A stretch of 63,969 nucleotides of DNA, filler included, from Ionaspis alba (taxonomy: Eukaryota): the NCBI GenBank assembly GCA_964255285.1. It is 3 parts of 3 records of this genome, joined end to end, with 100 filler letters (N's around TTAATTAATTAA, not from the genome) between each part and the next. Parts side by side here need not be neighbours in the genome. Positions count along the whole stretch, not along the records: positions 23,991 to 47,880 come from CAXUUL010000179.1; 2 more parts are not named here. One strand, 5' to 3'. The position numbers and the translations under genes were made by a program. The notes under the pieces are model-generated. The model searched no databases and was not told where the DNA came from. It saw only the letters and a list, made by a program, of their open reading frames with translations. Shown piece after piece: positions 23,891 through 47,980 of this stretch. How positions within the stretch are numbered: position 1 is the first letter of the stretch; the number at the start of each line of letters is the position of its first letter.

Positions 23891-23990
23891 NNNNNNNNNN
23901 NNNNNNNNNNNNNNNNNNNNNNNNNNNNNNNNNNTTAATTAATTAANNNNNNNNNNNNNNNNNNNNNNNNNNNNNNNNNNNNNNNNNNNN
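23891..23990. other. Artificial contig-joining spacer (N-TTAATTAATTAA-N)
   Basis: Palindromic 12-mer with stops in all six frames embedded in Ns. Confidence 0.97.
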
Positions 23991-24080
23991 TTTTCGTTTC
24001 CCTGCTTTCGACAAAGAAATCCGAAGTAAGCCATCAGCATTGCCAGCATCGTGCAATATATGCCTTCGTGCCCTTTTTTG

Positions 24081-25208
24081 CTAAAAACTGTCAAGTGCGT
24101 GATCTACGCCATCCTGATCTACCGAGGAAGGCTCTGGTTTCTTCATCGCATCGATGCCCAACTTTCCCGATGGAATAGTCCTTGCAGGCAGGTGCCAGTA
24201 ATCATACCGACCATTCCTGAGCACTCGTCCAAGACTTGTTCGATGACCTTCCGGTAGCACTCGTTCGGGAATTGGGATATTTTGTGGATAGTCACCGAAT
24301 AGACTTGGCCAAGGCATGGGTGCATGATCCATCCTTTTATTGTCCCTTTCCAAACCTTCAGCAAACCTTGCATCGAATCCCAACCAGTAATCTTCACGAT
24401 TACGGTGGCCGGGAACAACACCATTACACCACAGGCAGACGCGGACTGCCCAAGCCTTCGAGACTGTTCCTTTGCAATTGTGTCCCGCACATTTCCACAT
24501 TTTGTCCTCCCATCGCAGAAGATGTTCTTCTCGACATTCCAAGCAGAGCGATCCATCCTTTGGAGTACATTCACATCGGCTCATCTTGTGGTAATTAAGT
24601 GGTGGGCCGTATGGGCCATAGCGGAGCCGGTCCTTGTGAGGGTTTCCAGACTCGAAGCAGGTTTCGCACAAATGACGGTTTCTATTGTCGAACGTGTTTC
24701 CATTCCTAGAGAACGAGGACCTAACGACGCAGGCCTCACAGACCGGCATGGAGCATATACGACAATTCTTGACAGCTTTGCCTCTCTTATGGAAGGGCTC
24801 TGAGCATTCGAGCTGGCTTATCGACTTTAAACGCTTCCAAAGCTCTGTCTGGTGCCATCCGATACGGAGAGTTGGGCGGACTATTTCGTATTCATTATCT
24901 TCTGTTGTGCTGTTAAGGGTGGATATAGTATCACTGTCTGTGAAGCACGTCGACTCGCTGTCGGCAGGGCACAGAGTTTGTGTTTCTGAGATGGATTGAG
25001 AATCTTCCTCCAGTGAGTAGTTGGGCATGCCGTATACTGGAGGAAAGCCATGAAGGGCAGCGCGATAGCTAGTATTCACCCTGGACATGCTCAAGAGACT
25101 TCCGAATGGAAGTAGCCTAGCCAATCTCTCGACCAAGTGCGGGAGAGTAACGATGTCTAAGAGGGTAAAACCATGTCTGTGGCGTTGATCATGTTCTATC
25201 ATCTCCAT
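24081..25208 (-). CDS. Hypothetical protein with F-box-like N-terminus and Cys-rich (Zn-binding) C-terminal region
   Basis: 375-aa intronless ORF; LLDIVTLPHLVERLARLLPFGSLLSMSRVN resembles an F-box; CRICSMPVCEAC, LCETC, CEC..LCLEC, CAGHNC, CLWC. Confidence 0.65.
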   Translation of the reverse strand: MEMIEHDQRHRHGFTLLDIVTLPHLVERLARLLPFGSLLSMSRVNTSYRAALHGFPPVYGMPNYSLEEDSQSISETQTLCPADSESTCFTDSDTISTLNSTTEDNEYEIVRPTLRIGWHQTELWKRLKSISQLECSEPFHKRGKAVKNCRICSMPVCEACVVRSSFSRNGNTFDNRNRHLCETCFESGNPHKDRLRYGPYGPPLNYHKMSRCECTPKDGSLCLECREEHLLRWEDKMWKCAGHNCKGTVSKAWAVRVCLWCNGVVPGHRNREDYWLGFDARFAEGLERDNKRMDHAPMPWPSLFGDYPQNIPIPERVLPEGHRTSLGRVLRNGRYDYWHLPARTIPSGKLGIDAMKKPEPSSVDQDGVDHALDSF

Positions 25209-25567
25209 TATGCTCGAATGAAATAGTCAGATGAAAATCACGTAGAATTAGGGTTCCGAATTACCCCGCAAGGACGGTTCGAACTTGTCCCATGGACAGG
25301 CAGAGCGTAAGAAAATTCTTGCTTGCTCTCAAAGATGGTACTTACTGCGGAACAGGAAATATACACCCGCCATGAGGCTGTGAGGCTGAGCCTGAGCATA
25401 CTCCCTCTGATCGTGTAATCAGTTTGTGCCGCCCCCACATGCGATTGGTCTCCACTTCTAAACGTGCGGAATCTATCAGCCCTAACAACATATTCCATCA
25501 CTGGTTCCATCCAACGGCCGCCCAAATATATTCACACAAGTGATCATCTAGTCAACCACCACCGAAA

Positions 25568-26681
25568 ATGGCCCAGAAGTGTGTCCACAAAGGATGCGGC
25601 AAGAAATTCACGGATCCCGACGAAGACTGCATATACCATCCAGGCCCGCCCATCTTTCACGAAGGGCAGAAAGGTGTTCGCGCGCCCTTTCCTACCTCCA
25701 CGTGTTTCTGTCAATACCTCTGCTAACACTATCTACGACCAGGCTGGAAATGCTGCAAACCTCGTGTCCTGACTTTTGACGAATTCCTCTCAATCCCTCC
25801 CTGCACAACAGGTAGACATTCCATTATCGACGACACTCCCGCCCCTGCGCCCACACCTACCAGTGACCAGACCATTCCAGCTCCCGTCCCCAGGCGCGTC
25901 GCAGTCTCTACTACCTCTTCCGCTCCCGAGACCCCACAATCAAGCACTCCAACCCCACAACCTGAGCCCGAGCCGGAGACTGACACCGACGATCCCTCCC
26001 TCACCATCCCTCCGAACAGCACCTGCCGACGTCGCGCATGCGGTTTCACAACCCCCAACACGCCATCGTCACGCGAAGGCGAAAATTGCATACATCACCC
26101 AGGACACCCGATTTTTCACGAGGGAAGTAAAGGTTGGACCTGCTGTAAACGGAGAGTGCTAGAGTTCGACGAGTTTATGCGGATCGAGGGATGTCGGACG
26201 AAAGATAAACATTTGTTTGTAGGGAGCGGGAAGAAGGGGAAGAAGGGAGCGGAGGAGAGACTGGAGAGTGTGAGGTGAGTGATTGTGCTCGTCTCGACGG
26301 GTTTGGGCACGACGGAACCGCAGTGGCGAGTGGTGTTGGCCAAGCGAAGACGCTAATTTGAGCAGACATGATTTCTATCAGACTCCTACAACGGTGCATG
26401 CGTCCCTTTACTTGAAGAAGATCTTAAAGGCGGATGCGAAGATTAGCTTTTCGTCGCCAACGTCCGTGGAGCTTGATTTGCCGACTAGCGATCAGAAAAG
26501 ATATAAGAATACTATGCCACTGTTTGGACCTGTGGATACGGAGAAGTCGACATGGAAGATTATGGGGACAAAACTGGAATTCACTTTTGTCAAGGCGGAT
26601 GGGCAGAGTTGGCCGGTGCTAAGGGCTGATGAGAGGAGAACAGGGAATATTATCCAGGTCGGGCAGGCAGGGCTGGCATGA
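25568..26681 (+). CDS. CHORD- and CS-domain protein (CHP1/RAR1-like Hsp90 co-chaperone), 2 introns
   Basis: MAQKCVHKGCGK..CIYHPGPPIFHEGQKGWKCCKPRVLTFDEF; second CHORD CRRRACG..HHPG.PIFHEGSKGWTCCKRRVLEF; CS domain DFYQT..IMGTKLEF..KADG.SWP. Confidence 0.92.
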
Positions 26682-26906
26682 CAAGCTGGGGCCAATAGGC
26701 TAGACAGAAAGCATCGAATATACAGCAATAGACTACTGGCAGCTGCACAGAACTGCTCAGACCCATTGGATTGCTATATTCCAATAGAATTTGACGCCTG
26801 ACTCGTGACGCTGGATCGAAGCTGGCCTTTTTAGCTGGATCTTCCATGAATTGGATATCTTGTTCCTGTCCACCCACGTGCCGCCTAACCATTGTATAAA
26901 GCCCCT

Positions 26907-28169
26907 TCACTCCATGCCTTCCATCAACGACACCCGATCGAGTACCATCCCCCTCAATCCAGCAAACTCTCGAATCGCATCCCACTCTACACCCTCCTCT
27001 TCCCCTCTCCTTTCCCGATTCCTAAAGCCCCAGGAGATAGCCACCTGATCAATCATCGCCCTCTCTTCTTCCCTCAGCCATCGTTCTCTCAGCGGGGTTC
27101 CTGTGGCCCATGTGACCCGATCCATCTGGTCGTTGGCAGTAGTGATTGCGACAACACCGATAGTTGCTGTGAAGACGACGTAGGAAAGGATTCCTGCAAA
27201 CGCTATGTTGGTTGCCATTTCCGTACTCATAGTGTCTTGAAAGACGGAGAGCTGTGACGCCAGTGTGTAGGCTGCCGGAGGGGCAAGGGCCAGTCCTGAT
27301 AGCGGGACTAAAGCTCGACGGATAAATTTAGATTTGTGGTAGGCTGGGGTACACACGGTAGATTTGATAATATCGAAACATAATGCTAGATTCTTCGCTT
27401 GTATTGCGGCTTGTAGAGCAGTAATTGCTGTTTTGAGAGGGACAGCGGCTGTGATTTTGTTGGTGTTGGCTGGTGAGTACTGAACGGGTGAGGTGTTTGG
27501 TTTTGGAATTGGTTTGCCTGCGTAGAGTTTGAGAGCTTCCGATAGAGTCTCTGGTCGTCCAAGTAGGGTTTGTATATTGACATAGAGATCGAGTATTCTG
27601 GGAGTGATAAATACATTGGGACTCGTGACAATGGTGTATGCCGTATTCGAGAGCCGATCAACCACCTGTTCCCTAATTGCATTGGCCAGCACTATGGTGT
27701 TTTTTGTTGTTGACTCTGAACCTCCATCACTTTCATCCAAGAATAGTAGATTCTCGGCTGGCGTGACCTCAATATTTCCCTCCTCCTTCGAGGCTCCTGC
27801 TGCTTTCTTGAAGTACTTGGCAAGGTCTTCACATTTGGTCAGAGACTCGAGTATAACGTTCTCACCCAAAGCGACAGGATTGTGCAGTAGTCTTAGGGTG
27901 TCCTCCAGAACAACTGCGACGCGATTGATGGCCTGATGCTCATGCTTGTTGCCGGTGATCTTTTGCTCTTGAACGTCTCTGCATATCGAGTGTTTCTCTT
28001 GAGACTTTGTTTGCAAACGTCGGAAAGGTTGTGGTTTTGATGTCCTTGTTTGCAGATGGTTGGATCCAGAAAGGCAAAAACATTTCGTGCTTGGAACATG
28101 GTGAATTGAACGGTTCAGAAAGTCCCCAAACAATTGAACTTCACGCTGTACCAGGTGTTTGGAGCTCAT
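26907..28169 (-). CDS. Conserved-looking hypothetical fungal protein, probable mitochondrial membrane protein
   Basis: Long intronless ORF with two C-terminal hydrophobic helices followed by TTANDQMDRVTWATGTPLRERWLREEER. Confidence 0.7.
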   Translation of the reverse strand: MSSKHLVQREVQLFGDFLNRSIHHVPSTKCFCLSGSNHLQTRTSKPQPFRRLQTKSQEKHSICRDVQEQKITGNKHEHQAINRVAVVLEDTLRLLHNPVALGENVILESLTKCEDLAKYFKKAAGASKEEGNIEVTPAENLLFLDESDGGSESTTKNTIVLANAIREQVVDRLSNTAYTIVTSPNVFITPRILDLYVNIQTLLGRPETLSEALKLYAGKPIPKPNTSPVQYSPANTNKITAAVPLKTAITALQAAIQAKNLALCFDIIKSTVCTPAYHKSKFIRRALVPLSGLALAPPAAYTLASQLSVFQDTMSTEMATNIAFAGILSYVVFTATIGVVAITTANDQMDRVTWATGTPLRERWLREEERAMIDQVAISWGFRNRERRGEEEGVEWDAIREFAGLRGMVLDRVSLMEGME

Positions 28170-28572
28170 AACGCACAAGAGTCTTCCAGCTCTAGTCAAC
28201 TGCACGAGCGGAATGGCCGTCACCGCTACACCCGATCTCAAGTGAGTCTCTGCTGCCCACTGAGGCTACTGCCAGGATCACGCACGGACCATGGCGTGAC
28301 ACGCGAGCCCTACACAATGACGCTCCCAAAGAAGTGAGTAGCTTTTTGAAAGAAGCGGTGTCGCTGGCTGCAATGCATCGTTCATAGCATAATATGGTAA
28401 CCAGGCACACTATGGTCTCATAGAAGTCTTCTGCTTCGTCCATGTACCGCCTGCTAGTCATAGTCTTATGAAGCACAAATGTTGGTATTATCGTTAGTCC
28501 CATACCAAAGTGTATTCCATATTCGCGTAAGGTTCAAACGCAACCTGCTCGCTCTGTTCTCCCTAATCTAGG

Positions 28573-29449
28573 ATGTTTGCCTCCTATTTCTTTTCTTTTC
28601 TCTGTATCTCATCACTCTTCCTTACCAATGATGCGGCACGGATCCCGTTAATACTCATGATCCAGACGCCGACGGTACTGCTAATCTAAAGAGAGTTGCA
28701 ATTGTCGGGGCAGGTATCGCATGTGCATCTGCGGCCTACCAGCTACCTCCACATCATCGTTCCACACGTCTCGTCGATGTCACGGTCTTCGAGTCAGCTT
28801 CCATTGTAGGCGGCTGGGTCAAGTCCGCGAAGGTTCATGACGGAGCTTACGGGACATAACATGTCGAACCTGGAGCGTACCATTTCTACTCTGACGATCT
28901 ATCCTTGTAGGCAGCAATTGACGAGACTGGGTTGAGAAATTCTTTCCAGCCTCACTATCCACGAGAGAAGAGCGTCGGGTTTGGGACGGCCAGAGCTTCA
29001 CCATGTATAGAGGAAAAGGCCAGAAGTCCTTAACATGGCGTGACCTTAGCCGCTCAACTTGGAGATACGGGCTATCCCCTCGCCGGCTTCGAGGCCTAGT
29101 GGCAACAAGACTCCCTCAAACCCAGAAATTGTATGGCGCGTGGGAGACTGTTACCAGCAATCTCTCAAAAAGTCTGAGTACTCTAGGGTTGACAGATGAA
29201 TACAAACAGTCTGCTGGGAGCTACCCTTCCAGTAGGAGCATTCCAGCCGAGTTCTCGAGAGATATCGTGGAGGCCGCAGCTCGTACACACGATCTCCACC
29301 ATCTAAACTCCATGTCCGCCTTGATTGCTATGAGTACTACTACAGAAAACACAGGACGGACCCAACCAGAAAATCGAGATGACCTTCGTCAAATACGCGT
29401 ACTTAGAACAGGATTAGAACCGCAAACCAAGTCCAAGATCGCGGATTGA
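28573..29449 (+). pseudogene. Degenerate secreted FAD-dependent oxidoreductase (prenylcysteine oxidase/lyase-like)
   Basis: Signal-peptide-like start, RVAIVGAGIACASAAYQL..VTVFE...VGG Rossmann motif, VEPGA, WDG, WRYGLSP; in-frame TAA 28857 and TAG 28908 plus apparent frameshifts near 28650 and 28980; C-terminal half absent. Confidence 0.72.
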
Positions 29450-29688
29450 ACGTACACAAGGCTTCAGACGACGGAAGAACGAAATTCCCCTTCCAATCAG
29501 TCAACATGACATTGACCAGTCCCATCCCTCCGTCTCCAAGTTTATACACCCTGCCATCAAAGAGTGGTTCATTAATCATAGCAGTACCAATTAGGAAGAA
29601 AATGGATGCTGCTCCGAAAATGTTACAGTTTCGGATAGTGTGCTGCTTGGTTTGGTTGTATTACTGTAGAGCTGATAAAAACAGAAGG

Positions 29689-30034
29689 TACAGGGGTACC
29701 GCGTTTAGGCGGAAGAAATCTGCTAGGCTGAAATAGGCTAGTATGGTATTTTGAACTGCTTGAAGATTGACTTGATTAACTATGGGGAAGATATCCCCCC
29801 TACATGTATTAGGTGGTTCCCCGGGTGGTCCCCGGATGGTCCCCGGGTGGGCCCCCTAACAGCCAACATTCTAGGTGGTTGGTTGGTAACTAACAGTGGG
29901 TATCAATCATAATACCCCCTTAATCTAACCAACGCCACCCCCTAATCTAACCCCTAAGCCAACTATTACCCAGGTAACCGTTGTACCTAATTTTAGTAGG
30001 TTGATGAGGTAGGGTCAACCAGTACCCCCCTGTA
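29689..30034. mobile_element. Degenerate MITE / Tc1-mariner-like relic
   Basis: Left end TA|CAGGGGTAC, right end GTACCCCCCTG|TA (short imperfect inverted repeat with TA flanks); internal GGTGGTCCCC tandem units and TAATCTAACC duplication; CpG/CpA-poor, TpA-rich. Confidence 0.45.
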
Positions 30035-30867
30035 ACCCTAGCTTGTCTTGGCGGAGGAGCTAACCCTAAAAGAGATATTAGTTTAACAAGAGCACCGAAC
30101 TCCCCACAAACCTGCTCGCACAATGTCGATTCTCAAATCATTCTTGCTAAGCAGGTGTAGAGCCCGGAGGCATGCTTCTTTCCTCTGCTAATAACCAGTC
30201 TTGCAGTTGTTGCTGTCCACAAAGAAGTCGATCCAATTATGAGCGCGACGGTAAAGAAGTAGCTCCCGGACCGAGTTCCCGTGTTCTCAACTAGATGTGG
30301 CCAGCATTCTGTAAGGCTGTTGTTGAGTAGTACTGGCGTGTTTGCTCGTCTCCATGCCGTATAGTAGTAAAACACACTAGCGATGCGCCCGGAGGCCGGA
30401 ACTTAGAGCGCCCGATATTGATTAGCGCACTTACCAAAGCCCTAACGCTAAAAGGTCAATCTGCAACAAAGCTGAGGGTGCCACAGCTTCTTGGGGCCAT
30501 TTAGTATCTGGATCAACTACTATTCATCAGTTGTTGACTATACACAGACCAACACGATGAAGAGAACAACAGACTTCGCCACCAGTCATTACAACAATTT
30601 GCAGAGGCAAAGCCGTCGAGGCCATAGAGTAAGCTTCGACATGATGAGAAAAGGAAGACCACCAAATGCTGAAATCCAAGGTATATAAGACCTTCGGAGG
30701 ACCCGCTCATTCGACATTCAAACAGCAACAAACAGCTCAACACTTCAAGTACAAAAACCAAGATCAACCAAGTACCGAAACATCATCTCAGTCAGCCAGC
30801 CTCACCGAGAACCAAAAAGATCCATCTTCATTTTCAATTCCATCTTCAAACAAATTCTCCACTCAAT

Positions 30868-31242
30868 ATGCAATTCTCCAAAGCTCTTATTGCCACTCTC
30901 TTCCTCGCCCTCCCTCTCGTCTCCGCCTACGGCTCCGAATACTACGCCCGCGACGCAGAAATCGATTCCGGTATCGACTCCGGTATCCATGCGCGTGATG
31001 TGGGTTTCGAATCCGACCTATGGGCCCGCGACATCGGGTATGACGCGGACCTGTATGCCCGTGATCTCGAGATCGTTGACCTCTTCCGCCGCGGCGAGCT
31101 GACTCGCCGTGTCAAGAACCCGGCCGCTTGTCAGCAATGCGAGAACAATTGCAGGAGCATCGCAAGTCATACCAATCAGGTCTCGGAGATGTACCACAAG
31201 TGTTATCAAGCCAACTGCTTGAAGAAGGGTGTGTGTTACTAG
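30868..31242 (+). CDS. Small secreted precursor: signal peptide, acidic xAR-D repeat pro-region, RR sites, 6-Cys peptide
   Basis: 124-aa intronless ORF with C-rich third codon positions, MQFSKALIATLFLALPLVSA signal, upstream TATATAA at about 30682 and CA-rich leader. Confidence 0.88.
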   Translation: MQFSKALIATLFLALPLVSAYGSEYYARDAEIDSGIDSGIHARDVGFESDLWARDIGYDADLYARDLEIVDLFRRGELTRRVKNPAACQQCENNCRSIASHTNQVSEMYHKCYQANCLKKGVCY

Positions 31243-32612
31243 ATCGTGCAGGAGGAAAGGGACTGTCGGATGGAGATGGGGGTTGCTGGGATGTGGAGGG
31301 AGGACTTGTATATTAAGCAGGGGCGAAGGTTTACAGGTGTTGTACAGGTAGTGGCGTAATGAATCCAACTCGATGTTCAGTACTTGATCCAAAAGAGAAT
31401 TCGTTCTGCAATGCTTGAAGCGTTAATCTGCATGTGAAAGAGAGTTGAACAGTAAGTTTTCAATGTTTCAGTCCTACGAGCATTAACACCAAAATCGTTT
31501 CGATCCTTGCGCAGAAGCAAGCCTCAATATCGGCATAACGAAGGTACACTGTGTATAGGAACAAGCTGAAAGGATTTTGTAATCAAACAAGCAAGTTTGC
31601 CCATGGAATGTAAAACGCGCTCGACTTCAACCTAAGCGCAAGTAGACAGACACTTTGCCTCCTCAAGTATGCTCATGAACAAGCTGCACATCACTAGAGA
31701 TAAGACAGCCGAGCAAGCCAATAGACTCGATAGAAAGCTTGTCAGCTACGAGCTTAGGATCATGATGAACATTGGCACTGTCAGGCACTGAAGTGCTCAT
31801 GACACAACCAGAATAGTTCGGTCTATATTGGGGCCTGTGGTTCTGGCAGGCGGATGCTGTACGAAGGAAGTCATGGCGGAGGCCTCGCATTTCCAGCACA
31901 TAAGACCAGGAGCTCTCGGCACCTGGGCGGTAAACACCCTACATAAAAAGTCAGTGGTCGTGATATGGAGTTGTGTTTACCGACAAAGACAAGCGCCTCC
32001 CTTGCAAAGAACTTGATGATACCCTACATAGTCAGTAGACCTACTAGGATATACTATATTAATTGTCATCGGTTAAGAGCAAATGAGGCCTCCATAGTAG
32101 CAGAGTACAGAACTTTCGAAGGTTTGTGTTTTGACGTGTGGGATAGTACATGCAGCAGCTTAGGGAACTGTGAGCGCGTATATATAGTCCTAGTGAGCAC
32201 CGCTCGCCATTGAGAGCATCCTCGGACATGGACTGAGAGCTTGCTATGTTGACTATGATAGTAAAGAGCGCATAAGCCGCAGCACCACCCCTGATCGGCA
32301 GGCACAAAGTTAGGTCTGTTATCGATGTTAAAACTTTTAAACTAGCGGCAATTACGGAGACTCGGTCAAGATTTCCCCTTAAGCCCTACCTAAAGATCCG
32401 CAATTCGGTCTTGAGATAGCGAAGAGGTCAAGTCGCTCACCTCGCTAAATCTCATTGCATTAGTAGGAGCTCAAGCTTCTGGCTCCCTCATAAGGCACCT
32501 GTGCACCTACAAGAATGCGTCCATGTTAGCTATCCCGCGCAGCATTTTCGGGATGAACCATAATGACTTCAATAACATGTACCTAGAATTGGCCTCGGAA
32601 TGATCACGACCA

Positions 32613-33382
32613 ATGTACGGAGAACTGGGTCTGAAGCTGGTACGCTACTCCCCAAAGGTCATCAGGAGCCAAAGAGAAACTGACGCGTCAAATTCAGGTC
32701 CAACATGCCAAACGGACCCAAGCCCTGAACCATCTACCCCCCTATCAACCAGAGCTGGTCCGCGCCGTCACCCGTGAGGTCCGCGAGTTGGACAAAGATG
32801 TCTCCAACATCCTAGGGCCCACGCGAGGAGCCTTCAATCCGTCGTCAGACCCTGCAACTGCTTGCTCCCTGCTCGTGGATCACCTCTGCATGCGACGGAA
32901 CAAGCGATGCCTGCTGGCCTACCATCGTGTACGCGTTGATAAGCTGGAAGAGATGTGCTGGAATGGACAGGATGTCTTGGAGCAGCAACAACAACAGCAA
33001 ACGGAGTCGCGCAATGGGCAGGGTGGGGGAAGTGGGATGGCTTCTGAGGCAGGGAATTCGAGCTCGCTGAGTCCGGAAGAGGAGGAGTATGTCAGGCGCT
33101 ATAGCGATATGCTTGCAGCGTATAAGGGACAATGGACCGATATCGATTTGACGGGGAGCTTGGAACCTCCAACGGATTTGTTCATCGATGTGAGGGTTCT
33201 GAAAGACGCTGGGGAGATACAGACGGAGTATGGGTAGGATACTAATTGATGTCTGTGATGATTGCATGGTTCTGACTAGTTTTTGCAGGGCGATCACGTT
33301 AACCAAGAACAGTCAGTTCTACGTCAGGCAGGGGGATGTAGAGCGACTTATTGCTCAGGGATTCCTACAGAAGCTGAGTTGA
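32613..33382 (+). CDS. PSF1: GINS complex subunit Psf1, 2 introns
   Basis: MYGELGLKL, LVDHLCMRRNKRCLLAYH, DIDLTGSLEPP.DLFIDVRVLKDAGEIQTEYG, LTKNSQFYVRQGDVERLI. Confidence 0.96.
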
Positions 33383-34509
33383 CTGAATCTGCAATTTACG
33401 GATGTAGCGAACTGTGAGTATCACGACTAGAAACCTGGAATGGTCTCAGGTGCGGGTTTCTGCTTCGACTATATAGGCTCTTACGATGGTCCTCGGGGAA
33501 GTCGGGAGCTTAGGATCACTGGAGCATCCATGGTGCAGCTCAGTTTGAAGCTAAATTTGAGGAGGAATCCTGGTCCACGATGAGAGCGAAAATCCATCCG
33601 TCTGGGTGAATTCAAGTATTTGATTTGGGATGCTGCGGATCTTCTAGGAGGACACCGCTCTTGATGAGGCTATAAGCAAACATATCCAGGTCGCGGCTTG
33701 CGTGATCTCATAAATTTATAGTCCATTCCACTATATTGTGGCACGAGCGCTGGAACTCCACGCTCATACTCGACTAGATCTCTCTAATCGTCTCCTGGTC
33801 ATCGAGGCACGTATAACTCCCAAAGCCCTGGAGCACCCACAATCCGTTCTTCGCTCTATGCTGCTGTAGTGTATGGTATGCACTCCGCTATCCTATGGAT
33901 GTGTAAACCGTTGTTGTCACACTCCAACATTTTGATTGGAGGGATGCAGTCCGGGGATTTTTGCGCTGCGGCATCGGAGTGCGGAGAAGGATCGTGGAGA
34001 TGTGCAACTGCCGCTTAGTCGTGCAGCACGTCAAGACCTGTCGCTCACACGCCATGCAGAAAACTTGGTACCTTTATGCATGATCACGAATATCCATCCA
34101 GTGGCAGCGCCACTGACAGGTGCCATTGACAAGGAAAATCGCCCCGCGAAAAAAGAAGCATCGTCCTTCTCCACAATTTCTTCCCTCTGCCTTTTCGATC
34201 CAGTATGCGGCAGCTAAGCTTTAGCCCTTCTGCCATCTCGGGGAAAGCCCCGCTAGTTGGCTCAATGTTCACAAGCTTTGCGCGGTACTCTACAACCATG
34301 GCAGCTCATATATCTCTTTTGCCTCCCTGCTCCTACTATTTCATCCGTTCGGGAAAGCCCTAAGATCAGATGTGCAATTATCGTCATGATTGCGTGATTG
34401 ACAAACTCGCTCATGAGATATATCCTCGCCAAGAGCTAACCTCCTGGTATGAAACAATTCATCGTTCTCTGAGCTGAGCGAGCAGATTGCTTGTGGTGGA
34501 GCAGAGTGG

Positions 34510-37500
34510 ATGGCAGCGATGTCTACTCCGCCATCTGCCCGGCTTAGGAGCGGCTCTCGTCTGGCTCAATTGCTCCGCTCATCGCAGCCATCAATATCCG
34601 ACACCACCAGCGAACATGACGAAGATCAGAGTGGAGCATCACCACAAATCGAAACACGGTCCACGGGGAGCTTCCGACCACGAGCAGAATCTACTCCATT
34701 GGGAACTTCTGTTGCTTCGTCCATGAACCTAAAAACTCCTGCACGTTCATACTTCCACCGTTCTTTTCATGGCTCCATTGGTGGGTGGCGCCAAACTTCC
34801 ACTTCGATTGCACGTGCTGACCTTTCACAGCTCCAACAGATGGCACAAACAACACGCCTCACGGAGTACGCGAAGATACGGCCGAGCTGGCTTCGTGGGC
34901 GCTCTCGGACGCTGCCTCGATCAGGAGTGGTACTCCTCCACCTCACCATGGCGTCTCGGGGTCAAATTCAATAGCACCAAACCTCGACTCCTACTTCGAC
35001 GACCCTTTGAACAACCAACCAGCGACACCCCGCGATTCGAATGACTCTGTTAGACCCGATGTCATACGAGAAGTTTCAGAGCCTGTCACTCCAGAAAGCG
35101 GACCATCCTCCCGCAAATCTACCTCTATACTTGCGGAGATGATACGGGATGCTGCATCGGCTGAGGAAGAGGGCCACGATGCTAGTAGTGACAAGGACGA
35201 CAGTGTGTATGATGATGCGAATGCTCGAGCGGTCACCGTGCGCAATGGAATCATATCTCAGCCTGACGAAGGAACTGCACTTTTACGAAGTAAAGCAGCT
35301 TTGGACTCGCACAAACATCACCACTACGATACAATTCGTGACGTTGAGAGCCAGAGCTATGACTACAGAACTACTCTCGACAGGTTTCGCGCCCTGATCT
35401 CCAGGTCGAGAACGCGGAGCGTAAGCATTGTTCGTACAATCATCAGTCCAAAGTCATGGGAAGCAAGAGCTATCTGGAAACAAGGGGTAGTACGACCTGC
35501 TGGATTTGTTCCGGCTATCATCCTCGGGTTATTGCTGAACATTCTCGATGCTCTTTCCTATGGTATGATGGAACATCAAAACATGAAAAAGCTTAGATGC
35601 TGATGACTTTCTGCCTAGGAATGATCTTGTTCCCACTTGGACAGCCAATATTCGCCAAACTGGGTCCTGATGGTATCTCCATGTTCTACGTTAGCTGTAT
35701 TGTGTCGCAGCTTGTGTATAGTCTTGGCGGGAGTATCTTCAAAGGCGGTATAGGTTCGGAGATGGTATGGTCAATCCTTCGTAATCTTGATTGCTAGCTG
35801 ATTCATGGCTAGATCGAAGTCGTTCCATTCTTTCATAAGATGGCTTTCACCATAATGGCGCGAGTAGGCGAAGACAACCCGAAATCAGTCATTGCAACAA
35901 CTATTCTGTCTTACTCACTTAGTTCAATCTTGACCGGTGCCGTCTTCTTCCTCATGGGTAAGTGCAGGTTGGGCTCGCTTATTGGCTTCTTTCCACGACA
36001 TATCCTCATCGGCTGTATCGGCGGAGTCGGATGGTTCCTCGTAGCCACGGGCGTAGAGGTGTCTGCGCGACTTAATGGAAATCTCGAATACAACCTGACT
36101 ACCCTCAAGAAGCTTTTCCAGTCCGACACGATAGCTCTCTGGTTGATACCACTTATCCTTGCAATTACCCTGTTATTCACCAAACGTTGGGTGAAACACT
36201 CCTTGACTGACGCTGCATTTTTCTTATCCATTATCATAATCTTCTACTTCTTCGTTGCTGCTATACCAGATCTTAATCTTGATGACCTTCGAAGGAAAGG
36301 TTGGGTTTTCGCTGCTCCTGAAGCTGGAGTGCCTTTCTATCATTTTTACAGCCTTTACGGTAAGACACATCGCTTCTCAGCTATTTCAGGTTACTGCTTA
36401 CACCCTGTAGATTTTGGAGCGGTCAACTGGACAGCCCTCATTTCCACGGTGCCAGCTATGTTCGCATTGACTTTCTTCGGTATCTTGCATGTTCCAATCA
36501 ACATTCCAGCGTTGGGCTTGACGACCGGAGAGGACAATGTGGATGTTGATCGTGAACTAAGAGCTCATGGACTATCCAATGCTCTGTCCGGACTTTGTGG
36601 AAGCATACAGAACTATCTCGTCTACACAAACACCGTACTCTTCATGCGCAGTGGTGGAGATAGTCGGGTGGCCGGTGTGCTTCTAGCCTTTGCTACGTTT
36701 GGAATCCTTGTCATGGGACCAGTGATCATTGGATATATTCCCATCATGGTCGTCGGAGCACTCATATTTTTCCTTGGCTTCGACCTGATGCGAGAAGCGC
36801 TGGTGGATACGTGGGGAAGAGTTCACCGCTTGGAATATTTTACGGTAAGAACGATCCCTCCAGGTGACTGGTTCGTGGCTTACAGGTCACAGGTTATTGT
36901 AATTGTAGCGACAATGGGTGCTTATGACTTCGTGGTCGGGATACTCGTCGGAATAATGCTCGCTTGCGTCAGCTTCGTCGTTCAGTCTTCTCAGATCTCT
37001 GCTATCAGATCGGCACTACCAGGCGGACTTGCAAACTCCACGGTACGACGGCATCCAATCCAGCACCAATTTCTGCAAGAAGTTGGGAAGCAAATCTACG
37101 TCATGAAGCTTGCCGGCTATCTGTTCTTCGGGACCATCGTTGGTGTCGAGACTCGGATTAGAGCATTACTTCGGGAAGATGCCTTCGACTCTCATCCCAT
37201 TCGACTCCTTGTCCTTGATCTTTCGAAGGTCGACGGCGTCGACTTCTCGGCAGCAGAAGCTTTTACTCGCATCAACAGGATTCTCAAGGTGCGCGATGTC
37301 CAGATGATTATGTGTGGGTTCTCCTGGAAAGGCGAAATCGGCGATAGCCTATATAACGTTGGTCTCTTCGGTGAAGATGACGGTGTCGAGTTCTTTGAGG
37401 ACCTCAACTCGGCTCTCGAGTTTTGCGAGAATGAGCTCCTTAAAGCTTTCTATCAGAGGAGAGATGCTATGAATGTCACCAGCTCCGGGACAAAACATCT

Positions 37501-47880: not shown

Positions 47881-47980
47881 NNNNNNNNNNNNNNNNNNNN
47901 NNNNNNNNNNNNNNNNNNNNNNNNTTAATTAATTAANNNNNNNNNNNNNNNNNNNNNNNNNNNNNNNNNNNNNNNNNNNN
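47881..47980. other. Artificial contig-joining spacer (N-TTAATTAATTAA-N)
   Basis: Same linker as at 23891. Confidence 0.97.

Follow-up and report, generated by a model that had tools for sequence, protein, structure and literature searches.

The cysteine-rich antimicrobial and effector folds described in fungi are mostly β or α/β, and AFP, bubble protein, NFAP2 and the CSαβ defensins have β-strand or α/β folds. The CSαβ defensins are defined by a C-terminal C-x-C together with β strands, and knottins and hydrophobins by an adjacent CC pair and a β-rich core. Vanabins work through a disulfide ladder that presents Lys and His side chains. The α-hairpinins are plant peptides, for which the accessible part of a review (PMC11591084) gives a 4C motif (C-x3-C-xn-C-x3-C) and a 6C motif (C-x3-C-x3-C-x4-20-C-x3-C-x3-C). 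According to the same text, most of them are antifungal, and their activities vary (protease inhibition, ribosome inactivation), so that a similar fold elsewhere would, by analogy, leave the target unfixed. The K2PP effectors, such as SnTox3, ToxA and SIX1/4/6, are defined in the accessible part of PMC8528282 by a signal peptide and a pro-domain ending in KR, RR or LxxR, with Leu at P4; K2PP is a processing class and not a homologous family. The KEPs (Le Marquer 2019, Umemura 2020) are defined, in the accessible part of PMC6339444, by repeated motifs, three or more in number, with KR, RR or KK between them. No all-helical hairpin family was met in the accessible part of a 2025 review of fungal effector folds (PMC12018790) or in the open-access literature surveyed, and no description of a fungal α-hairpinin-like family was met in that open-access literature.

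We analysed a stretch of 63,969 nucleotides from Ionaspis alba (the window), in which an earlier note had described a secreted repeat-precursor releasing a six-cysteine peptide. Our best explanation of this locus, to which we give a probability of roughly 40%, is that it encodes a Kex2-processed, disulfide-stapled helical hairpin that binds a target and acts most likely against competing microbes.

The precursor gene

Translation of positions 30868-31242 on the plus strand gave an intronless ORF of 124 amino acids with secreted-precursor anatomy, which matched the unit list of the earlier note unit for unit. The GC3 of the ORF was 0.69, compared with an intergenic mean of 0.47 and maximum of 0.58 among 128 overlapping flanking windows, and an A is located at position -3 of the ATG. 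A candidate TATA box (TATATAA, 30682..30688, +), of putative function, lies 186 nt 5' of the ATG and is the sole TATA[AT]A[AT] match within 30201-30870. Because of the GC3, the TATATAA, the A at -3 and a homologue with a common architecture (P0005, see below), 30868-31242 is a real gene and not a chance ORF. A contig of the sequencing run that is the probable source covers 30200-31900 with zero differences, and a second run contributed four short identical pieces, at a depth of about 3, over the precursor gene region. A third run yielded no pieces, and no RNA run figured among those listed for the gene.

Searches with both protein and DNA found the precursor gene in single copy in the 18.3-Mb, 1282-contig assembly, with no paralogues. 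The cysteine-spacing pattern gave 38 matches in the assembly, which were mostly CAG/CTG-type repeats, and none of the 6 that were translated was a secreted peptide. A single copy, a pocket shared with a pseudogene and repeat relics, and the absence from the 43-aa tail of a cysteine pair found in the homologue would suit a silent or decaying gene of a fast-turnover family, like the adjoining pseudogene. We regard this as very improbable, since the frame is intact with the GC3, TATA box and start context described above, the cysteines are missing as a pair and not singly, and the final 11 residues are identical to those of P0005.

The first 20 residues (30868..30927, +) are a predicted signal peptide, as had been claimed, with a basic N-region, a hydrophobic core at aa 7-15 (mean hydropathy 2.8, judged by hand) and small residues at -3/-1; the N-terminus of P0005 is similar.

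The acidic pro-region and its processing

Residues 21-81 of the precursor form a pro-region of pI 4.4 and charge -7.1, divided into units of 8, 15, 11, 11, 10 and 6 aa. Each of the four acidic units of 8/15/11/11 aa (30928..31062, +) ends in a single-Arg [YIL]xAR followed by Asp, whereas the two terminal units (31063..31110, +) end in LFRR and LTRR, which are canonical sites of the Kex2 type, carry Leu at P4 and are predicted to be cleaved. The units were as described, with only 3/6 of them 10-11 aa long, and beyond one 12-nt duplication they are too divergent at the DNA level for a repeat family. At the junctions, 4/6 are single-Arg AR-D and 2/6 are dibasic; the AR-D junctions are poorer kexin sites, and some may stay uncut.

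A kexin gene was found on assembly contig C49 (PF01483, E 1.7e-16, in frame with a subtilase domain), which together with LFRR and LTRR bears out the proposal of Kex2-type sites in a secreted prepro-peptide. Because of this anatomy (a signal peptide judged by manual hydropathy and a pro-domain ending in RR), the dibasic sites and the kexin gene, the precursor fits the K2PP definition, and we infer that it is very probably secreted and cleaved. Both dibasic sites, LFRR (aa 75) and LTRR (aa 81), fall beyond the precursor midpoint, and the published K2PP screen, as set out in the accessible part of its source, was confined to the protein's first half (PMC8528282). The likeness to the K2PP effectors covers the signal peptide, the low-structure pro-domain ending in RR and the small cysteine-rich cargo (PMC8528282, accessible part), while the predicted 43-aa cargo is far smaller and wholly helical, its pro-domain consists of arrayed acidic units, and the host probably belongs to a lichen lineage.

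The pro-unit pattern had 13 matches in the assembly, 2 of which were the precursor gene itself and 1 a further precursor, L034 (C342:10168-10838, +). It has a signal peptide, acidic LYAR-D pro units and a basic, cysteine-free cargo of unknown kind, with one probable intron, a C-terminal acidic piece after KR and a TATA box upstream. Outside this genome, the pro-module was met in other fungi-like sequences, such as the 172-aa P0003, which carries five YAR/YTR-D units and a basic tail. The array is missing from P0005, and in L034 and P0003 similar units stand before unrelated cargo, so the acidic units behave as a reusable pro-module.

The earlier note had also suggested that the repeats themselves could be released as products, a claim weakened by the same two observations and by the 4/6 junctions with a single Arg. 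We weighed a precursor of the KEP or dikaritin RiPP type, whose products would be the short units and whose cysteine tail would be secondary. The units are alike in length, contain Tyr or Trp and end in Arg, as the clustered short units behind a signal peptide do in KEPs, and the genome contains UstYa/DUF3328 genes (15 matches on 8 contigs). Against it, the predominant junctions are AR then Asp, compared with the KR, RR or KK demanded by the KEP definition (PMC6339444, accessible part), and only two dibasic junctions separate divergent units, short of three dibasic-separated repeats. A conserved folded domain is predicted to follow the units, P0005 keeps the tail and has no array, and 0/15 of the UstYa/DUF3328 matches lie on the two contigs checked, C178 or C179 (C179 is only about 15 kb). 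We consider this reading quite remote. The UstYa/DUF3328 matches are located on C24, C99, C122, C702, C745, C1123, C1126 and C1150, a spread which suggests several RiPP clusters in a small assembly.

The 43-residue peptide, its homologue and the predicted fold

The predicted mature peptide occupies 31111-31239, and with the stop 31111..31242 (+). It has cysteines at positions 7, 10, 14, 31, 36 and 42 (C-x2-C-x3-C-x16-C-x4-C-x5-C, spacing 2-3-16-4-5), a pI of 8.6, a charge of +2.9 and a calculated reduced mass of 4866.5 Da, and would begin at V82. An exhaustive HMMER search of 1.84 billion representative proteins of all lengths returned 5 hits, 4/5 of which match the pro-region alone; one of these, P0004, is a fish low-complexity protein and was discarded. 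The one tail homologue, P0005 (81 aa, E 1.9e-4), comes as a singleton from the assembly of a sequencing run, and the Ionaspis alba assembly does not encode it. Its signal peptide is similar, its pro-piece spans about 21 aa and ends in KR, and its tail is 39 aa long.

Further sequence searches agreed with the proposed absence of a characterised family. For the precursor, Pfam gave two weak rows, both short of the cut-off (E 0.05 and 0.17), and it gave 0 families for the 43-mer (E up to 1) and for P0005 (E up to 10). NCBIfam gave 0 matches for the 3 proteins queried, and PDB sequences gave 2 chance rows for the 43-mer and 0 for a two-sequence profile. Word-indexed protein search found none among 41 candidates, and with the two-sequence profile 1/106 candidates, P0005 itself, in the one length class covered; the profile found no third member in proteins, metagenomes, prokaryote genomes (0/45 candidates), viral contigs (0/60 candidates) or PDB. 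Two metagenome loci (L004 and L005, 2/106 candidates) were rejected as false, with a stop inside the match and a bacterial signalling-gene context. In the Atlas the 43-mer tail had no usable match, and P0005 had one row (130/256 features), an ascomycete cluster auto-named pathogenicity protein, at a score of 0.80, where scores below 0.9 are reached by one third of shuffled proteins. By sequence, this is a two-member family undescribed in the sources examined, and all comparative claims on it rest on these two sequences.

The last 37 residues of the two peptides align without a gap, with 21 identical, the last 11 all identical and the stop position in common. In a shuffle control 0/200,000 reached 15 identities, but P0005 was picked as the best hit, so the E-value was relied on instead. 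P0005 keeps all six cysteines of the 43-mer and a dibasic site (KR), and so passes the test of the earlier note, which had named homologues without the conserved cysteines and the RR site as counter-evidence; the six-cysteine count holds for the 43-mer but not for its sole homologue, which has eight, with a spacing of 2-3-3-8-3-4-5. Its two additional cysteines stand opposite A18 and M27 in the 43-mer, two residues that share their helix faces and their antiparallel register with C14 and C31 (each pair sums to 45). Their joint absence from the 43-mer is suggestive of the loss of one inter-helix disulfide, for which the chance that 2 lost of 8 cysteines form a nested pair is 4/28; from two sequences, a loss in the 43-mer and a gain in P0005 look alike.

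Apart from the cysteines, identity was 13/16 in the C-terminal half and 2/15 in the N-terminal half (Fisher p 2e-4, for a split picked after viewing), an unevenness for which recent divergence or recombination, instead of selection, could also account. The mature P0005 peptide is anionic (charge -2.2, pI 4.9), compared with +2.9 for the 43-mer, and its pro-piece has a charge of +1.0 and no acidic unit array. These results bear on a further alternative, in which a cationic antimicrobial or toxin would permeabilise membranes, with the acidic pro-region masking its charge before cleavage. The tail at +2.9 against a pro-region at -7.1 is what it expects, and opposite pro and cargo charges were found in 3/3 precursors examined, namely the Ionaspis alba precursor, P0005 (+1.0/-2.2) and L034, in which the pro-region has 14 acidic and 4 basic residues and the first cargo exon 10 basic and 5 acidic. 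This fits charge masking by the pro-region, although three cases are an anecdote. The masked-cation claim of the earlier note was borne out by the charges within the Ionaspis alba precursor, but not by P0005, whose mature peptide is anionic and whose pro-piece is not acidic. Moreover, the helices are polar, with weak amphipathicity (hydrophobic moment 0.10-0.37), and the GxC γ-core pattern is absent, and we judge the membrane-active reading improbable. The anionic homologue and the C-terminal cluster of identities speak for a peptide that binds a target rather than a cationic one that lyses membranes, and that the C-terminal half does the binding is, from the two sequences, somewhat better than an even prospect.

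AlphaFold2 modelled the 43-mer alone with helices at 4-18 and 24-37 (pLDDT 92) and no strand, so the helical hairpin proposed earlier is borne out by prediction. The P0005 model has helices at 44-56 and 62-75, a low-confidence N-terminus and no strand. We infer that the six cysteines of the 43-mer probably form three disulfides in a nested hairpin, in which C14-C31 is best supported and the outer two pairings (C7 and C10 with C36 and C42) are uncertain. This pairing was argued from the sequence and helix register rather than taken from the model coordinates, and on an ideal helical wheel C36 lies outside the cysteine face.

Four fold searches and one re-alignment gave no significant fold match for the 43-mer or P0005: the best Foldseek E-values were 4.0 and 0.62 and the best VIA Z-scores 5.0 and 4.1, while unrelated helix pairs reach Z-scores of up to 5.0. 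Small cysteine-rich helical hairpins made up 7/10 and 5/9 of the Foldseek rows for the 43-mer and P0005 models, a class to which nigellin-1.1 belongs by its published description and to which we take the other rows to belong. Ole e 6, PcF, snakin, thionins and nemertean toxin B-IV, presumably small disulfide hairpins as well, were not among the fold matches listed. The two-helix shape is generic, and as a predicted fold it shows no function by itself.

The six-cysteine α-hairpinin nigellin-1.1 (PDB 2NB2) resembles the predicted peptide in its helix-loop-helix of about 40 aa, its facing-helix cysteines and its secreted precursor. It aligned with the 43-mer at Z 4.4 and rmsd 1.6 Å and with P0005 at Z 4.0 and rmsd 1.5 Å, each over 35 residues and neither significant; superposition gave 1.4-1.6 Å over 35-38 residues, and the Foldseek E-values were 6.6 and 8.1. 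However, α-hairpinins are from plants, whereas the 43-mer is fungal, and neither it nor the two-sequence profile had a sequence match to such a PDB chain. P0005 contains an exact C-x3-C-x8-C-x3-C, which is the 4C motif, but the 43-mer reads C10-x3-C14-x16-C31-x4-C36, with x2 and x4 spacings and the inner cysteine pair missing. Neither peptide has the 6C motif, which P0005 would fit with a last spacing of x4. Because the 4C and 6C motifs fail in it, the 43-mer was not filed as an α-hairpinin, and convergence is the simpler reading of the resemblance.

Vanabin2 (PDB 1VFI) is likewise a helical hairpin with close-set cysteines and was the top Foldseek row for P0005 (probability 0.77, E 0.62, 34% identity over 41 columns), and it aligned with the 43-mer at Z 4.5 and rmsd 2.1 over 41 residues; neither match is significant. 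Together with one His common to the 43-mer and P0005, this raises a secreted metal-binding peptide, with a vanabin-like disulfide ladder or Cys/His ligands. Such a role seems far-fetched, since the identity is cysteine-driven, vanabin2 is a 95-aa ascidian protein of which the match spans less than half, and the Pfam searches at E up to 1 (43-mer) and 10 (P0005) found no family.

AFP, bubble protein and NFAP2 (PMC13525654, accessible part) and the CSαβ defensins are small, secreted, cysteine-stabilised and fungal like the predicted peptide, but the 43-mer and P0005 models are strandless and neither peptide has a Pfam match. The 43-mer shows neither a G-x-C-x3-9-C γ-core nor an AFP-type Pfam profile match, and its spacing of 2-3-16-4-5 and strandless model lack the CSαβ hallmarks. 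Neither the 43-mer nor P0005 contains CC, and both models are all-helical, without the knottin or hydrophobin hallmarks.

Candidate roles and genomic neighbourhood

The target-binding hairpin that we prefer would arise as follows. The signal peptide would direct the precursor into the ER, where disulfides would staple two antiparallel helices, and the acidic pro-region would serve as a folding and trafficking leader that holds the peptide inactive. In the late Golgi, kexin would cut after LTRR, and the 43-aa peptide would be secreted and bind a specific target through the conserved helix 2 and C-terminal tail, as α-hairpinins do. The target would most likely lie in competing microbes of the habitat of the fungus. 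Antagonism toward microbes is a tentative suggestion by analogy, and in the accessible part of a Peltigera study the predicted antimicrobial secretomes of lichen fungi are large and lie near repeats (bioRxiv 10.64898/2026.06.16.732702).

With the same processing and fold, the peptide may instead be an effector or signal to the photobiont or to the fungus itself, by binding a receptor or inhibiting an enzyme. A protein ligand would fit a surface that is conserved while net charge varies, and in Xanthoria the genes upregulated in the thallus are enriched in unannotated secreted proteins, at 33% versus 25% of the secretome (bioRxiv 10.1101/2024.08.16.608140, accessible part). The pathogenicity-named Atlas row for P0005 is a weak lead in the same direction, at a level that one third of shuffled proteins attain. 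We hold this alternative to be unlikely. A more far-reaching proposal, possible but doubtful, is that the peptide is the founding member of a fungal α-hairpinin-like family independent of plants, a hairpin with four disulfides, but three in this species, which Kex2 would free from an exchangeable acidic pro-module and which would control microbes or the photobiont through a specific target.

A peptide of 43 residues can be synthesised, which would make directly testable whether unculturable lichen fungi shape their microbiome or manage their alga by secreted peptides. The natural pair of six- and eight-cysteine peptides with opposite net charge would separate charge-driven from target-driven action. 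Fungi commonly have secreted cysteine-rich orphan peptides, and this precursor is one good candidate among many; in Xanthoria, 205/608 secreted proteins are unannotated (bioRxiv 10.1101/2024.08.16.608140, accessible part). A wider fungal family with activity, if shown, would raise the importance of the 43-mer family.

The precursor gene lies 2.7 kb from a neighbour gene on the same contig, at 26907-28169, and 1.4 kb from a GINS-subunit gene. The best named matches of the former are Xylographa, Trapelia, Lambiella and Ptychographa (54-64% identity), and Xylographa and Trapelia belong to the Ostropomycetidae, Lecanoromycetes. Judged from these best hits rather than from a tree, the host is probably of this lichen-forming lineage and lichenised. 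Farther along, at 24081-25208 (-), a 375-aa ORF has a cysteine-rich C-terminal part, no Pfam match and an N-terminus that we take to be F-box-like.

The gene sits in a 4.4-kb pocket, which the earlier note had placed beside a pseudogene and a transposon relic. The pseudogene was confirmed at 28692..29449 (+) as prenylcysteine-oxidase-like (PF07156, E 3.8e-6, profile positions 4-119 of 363, just below the cut-off), and it carries two in-frame stops and a frame change. No other PF07156 match occurs in the assembly, so that the enzyme may be lost or the assembly incomplete. In place of the putative transposon relic, dispersed repeat fragments were confirmed at 29612..30094 (strand not assigned), which match 8 other places on 7 contigs at 80-98% identity. 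The repeat-rich context is consistent with, and not diagnostic of, a secreted-protein gene, as such genes in Peltigera generally lie near repeats (bioRxiv 10.64898/2026.06.16.732702, accessible part). In 500-nt bins over 24001-36000, TpA/ApT was raised (1.2-1.4) in 29501-30500, the stretch around the repeat fragments (1.25-1.41), and in 32001-32500, compared with 0.44-1.0 elsewhere. The raised ratio on both flanks is weakly suggestive of RIP-type mutation, and the gene itself is free of the signal. An 11-nt-period triple repeat is located at 29818-29855. The window joins several contigs, and at 23891-23990 and 47881-47980 two 44-N runs surround a 12-base insert.
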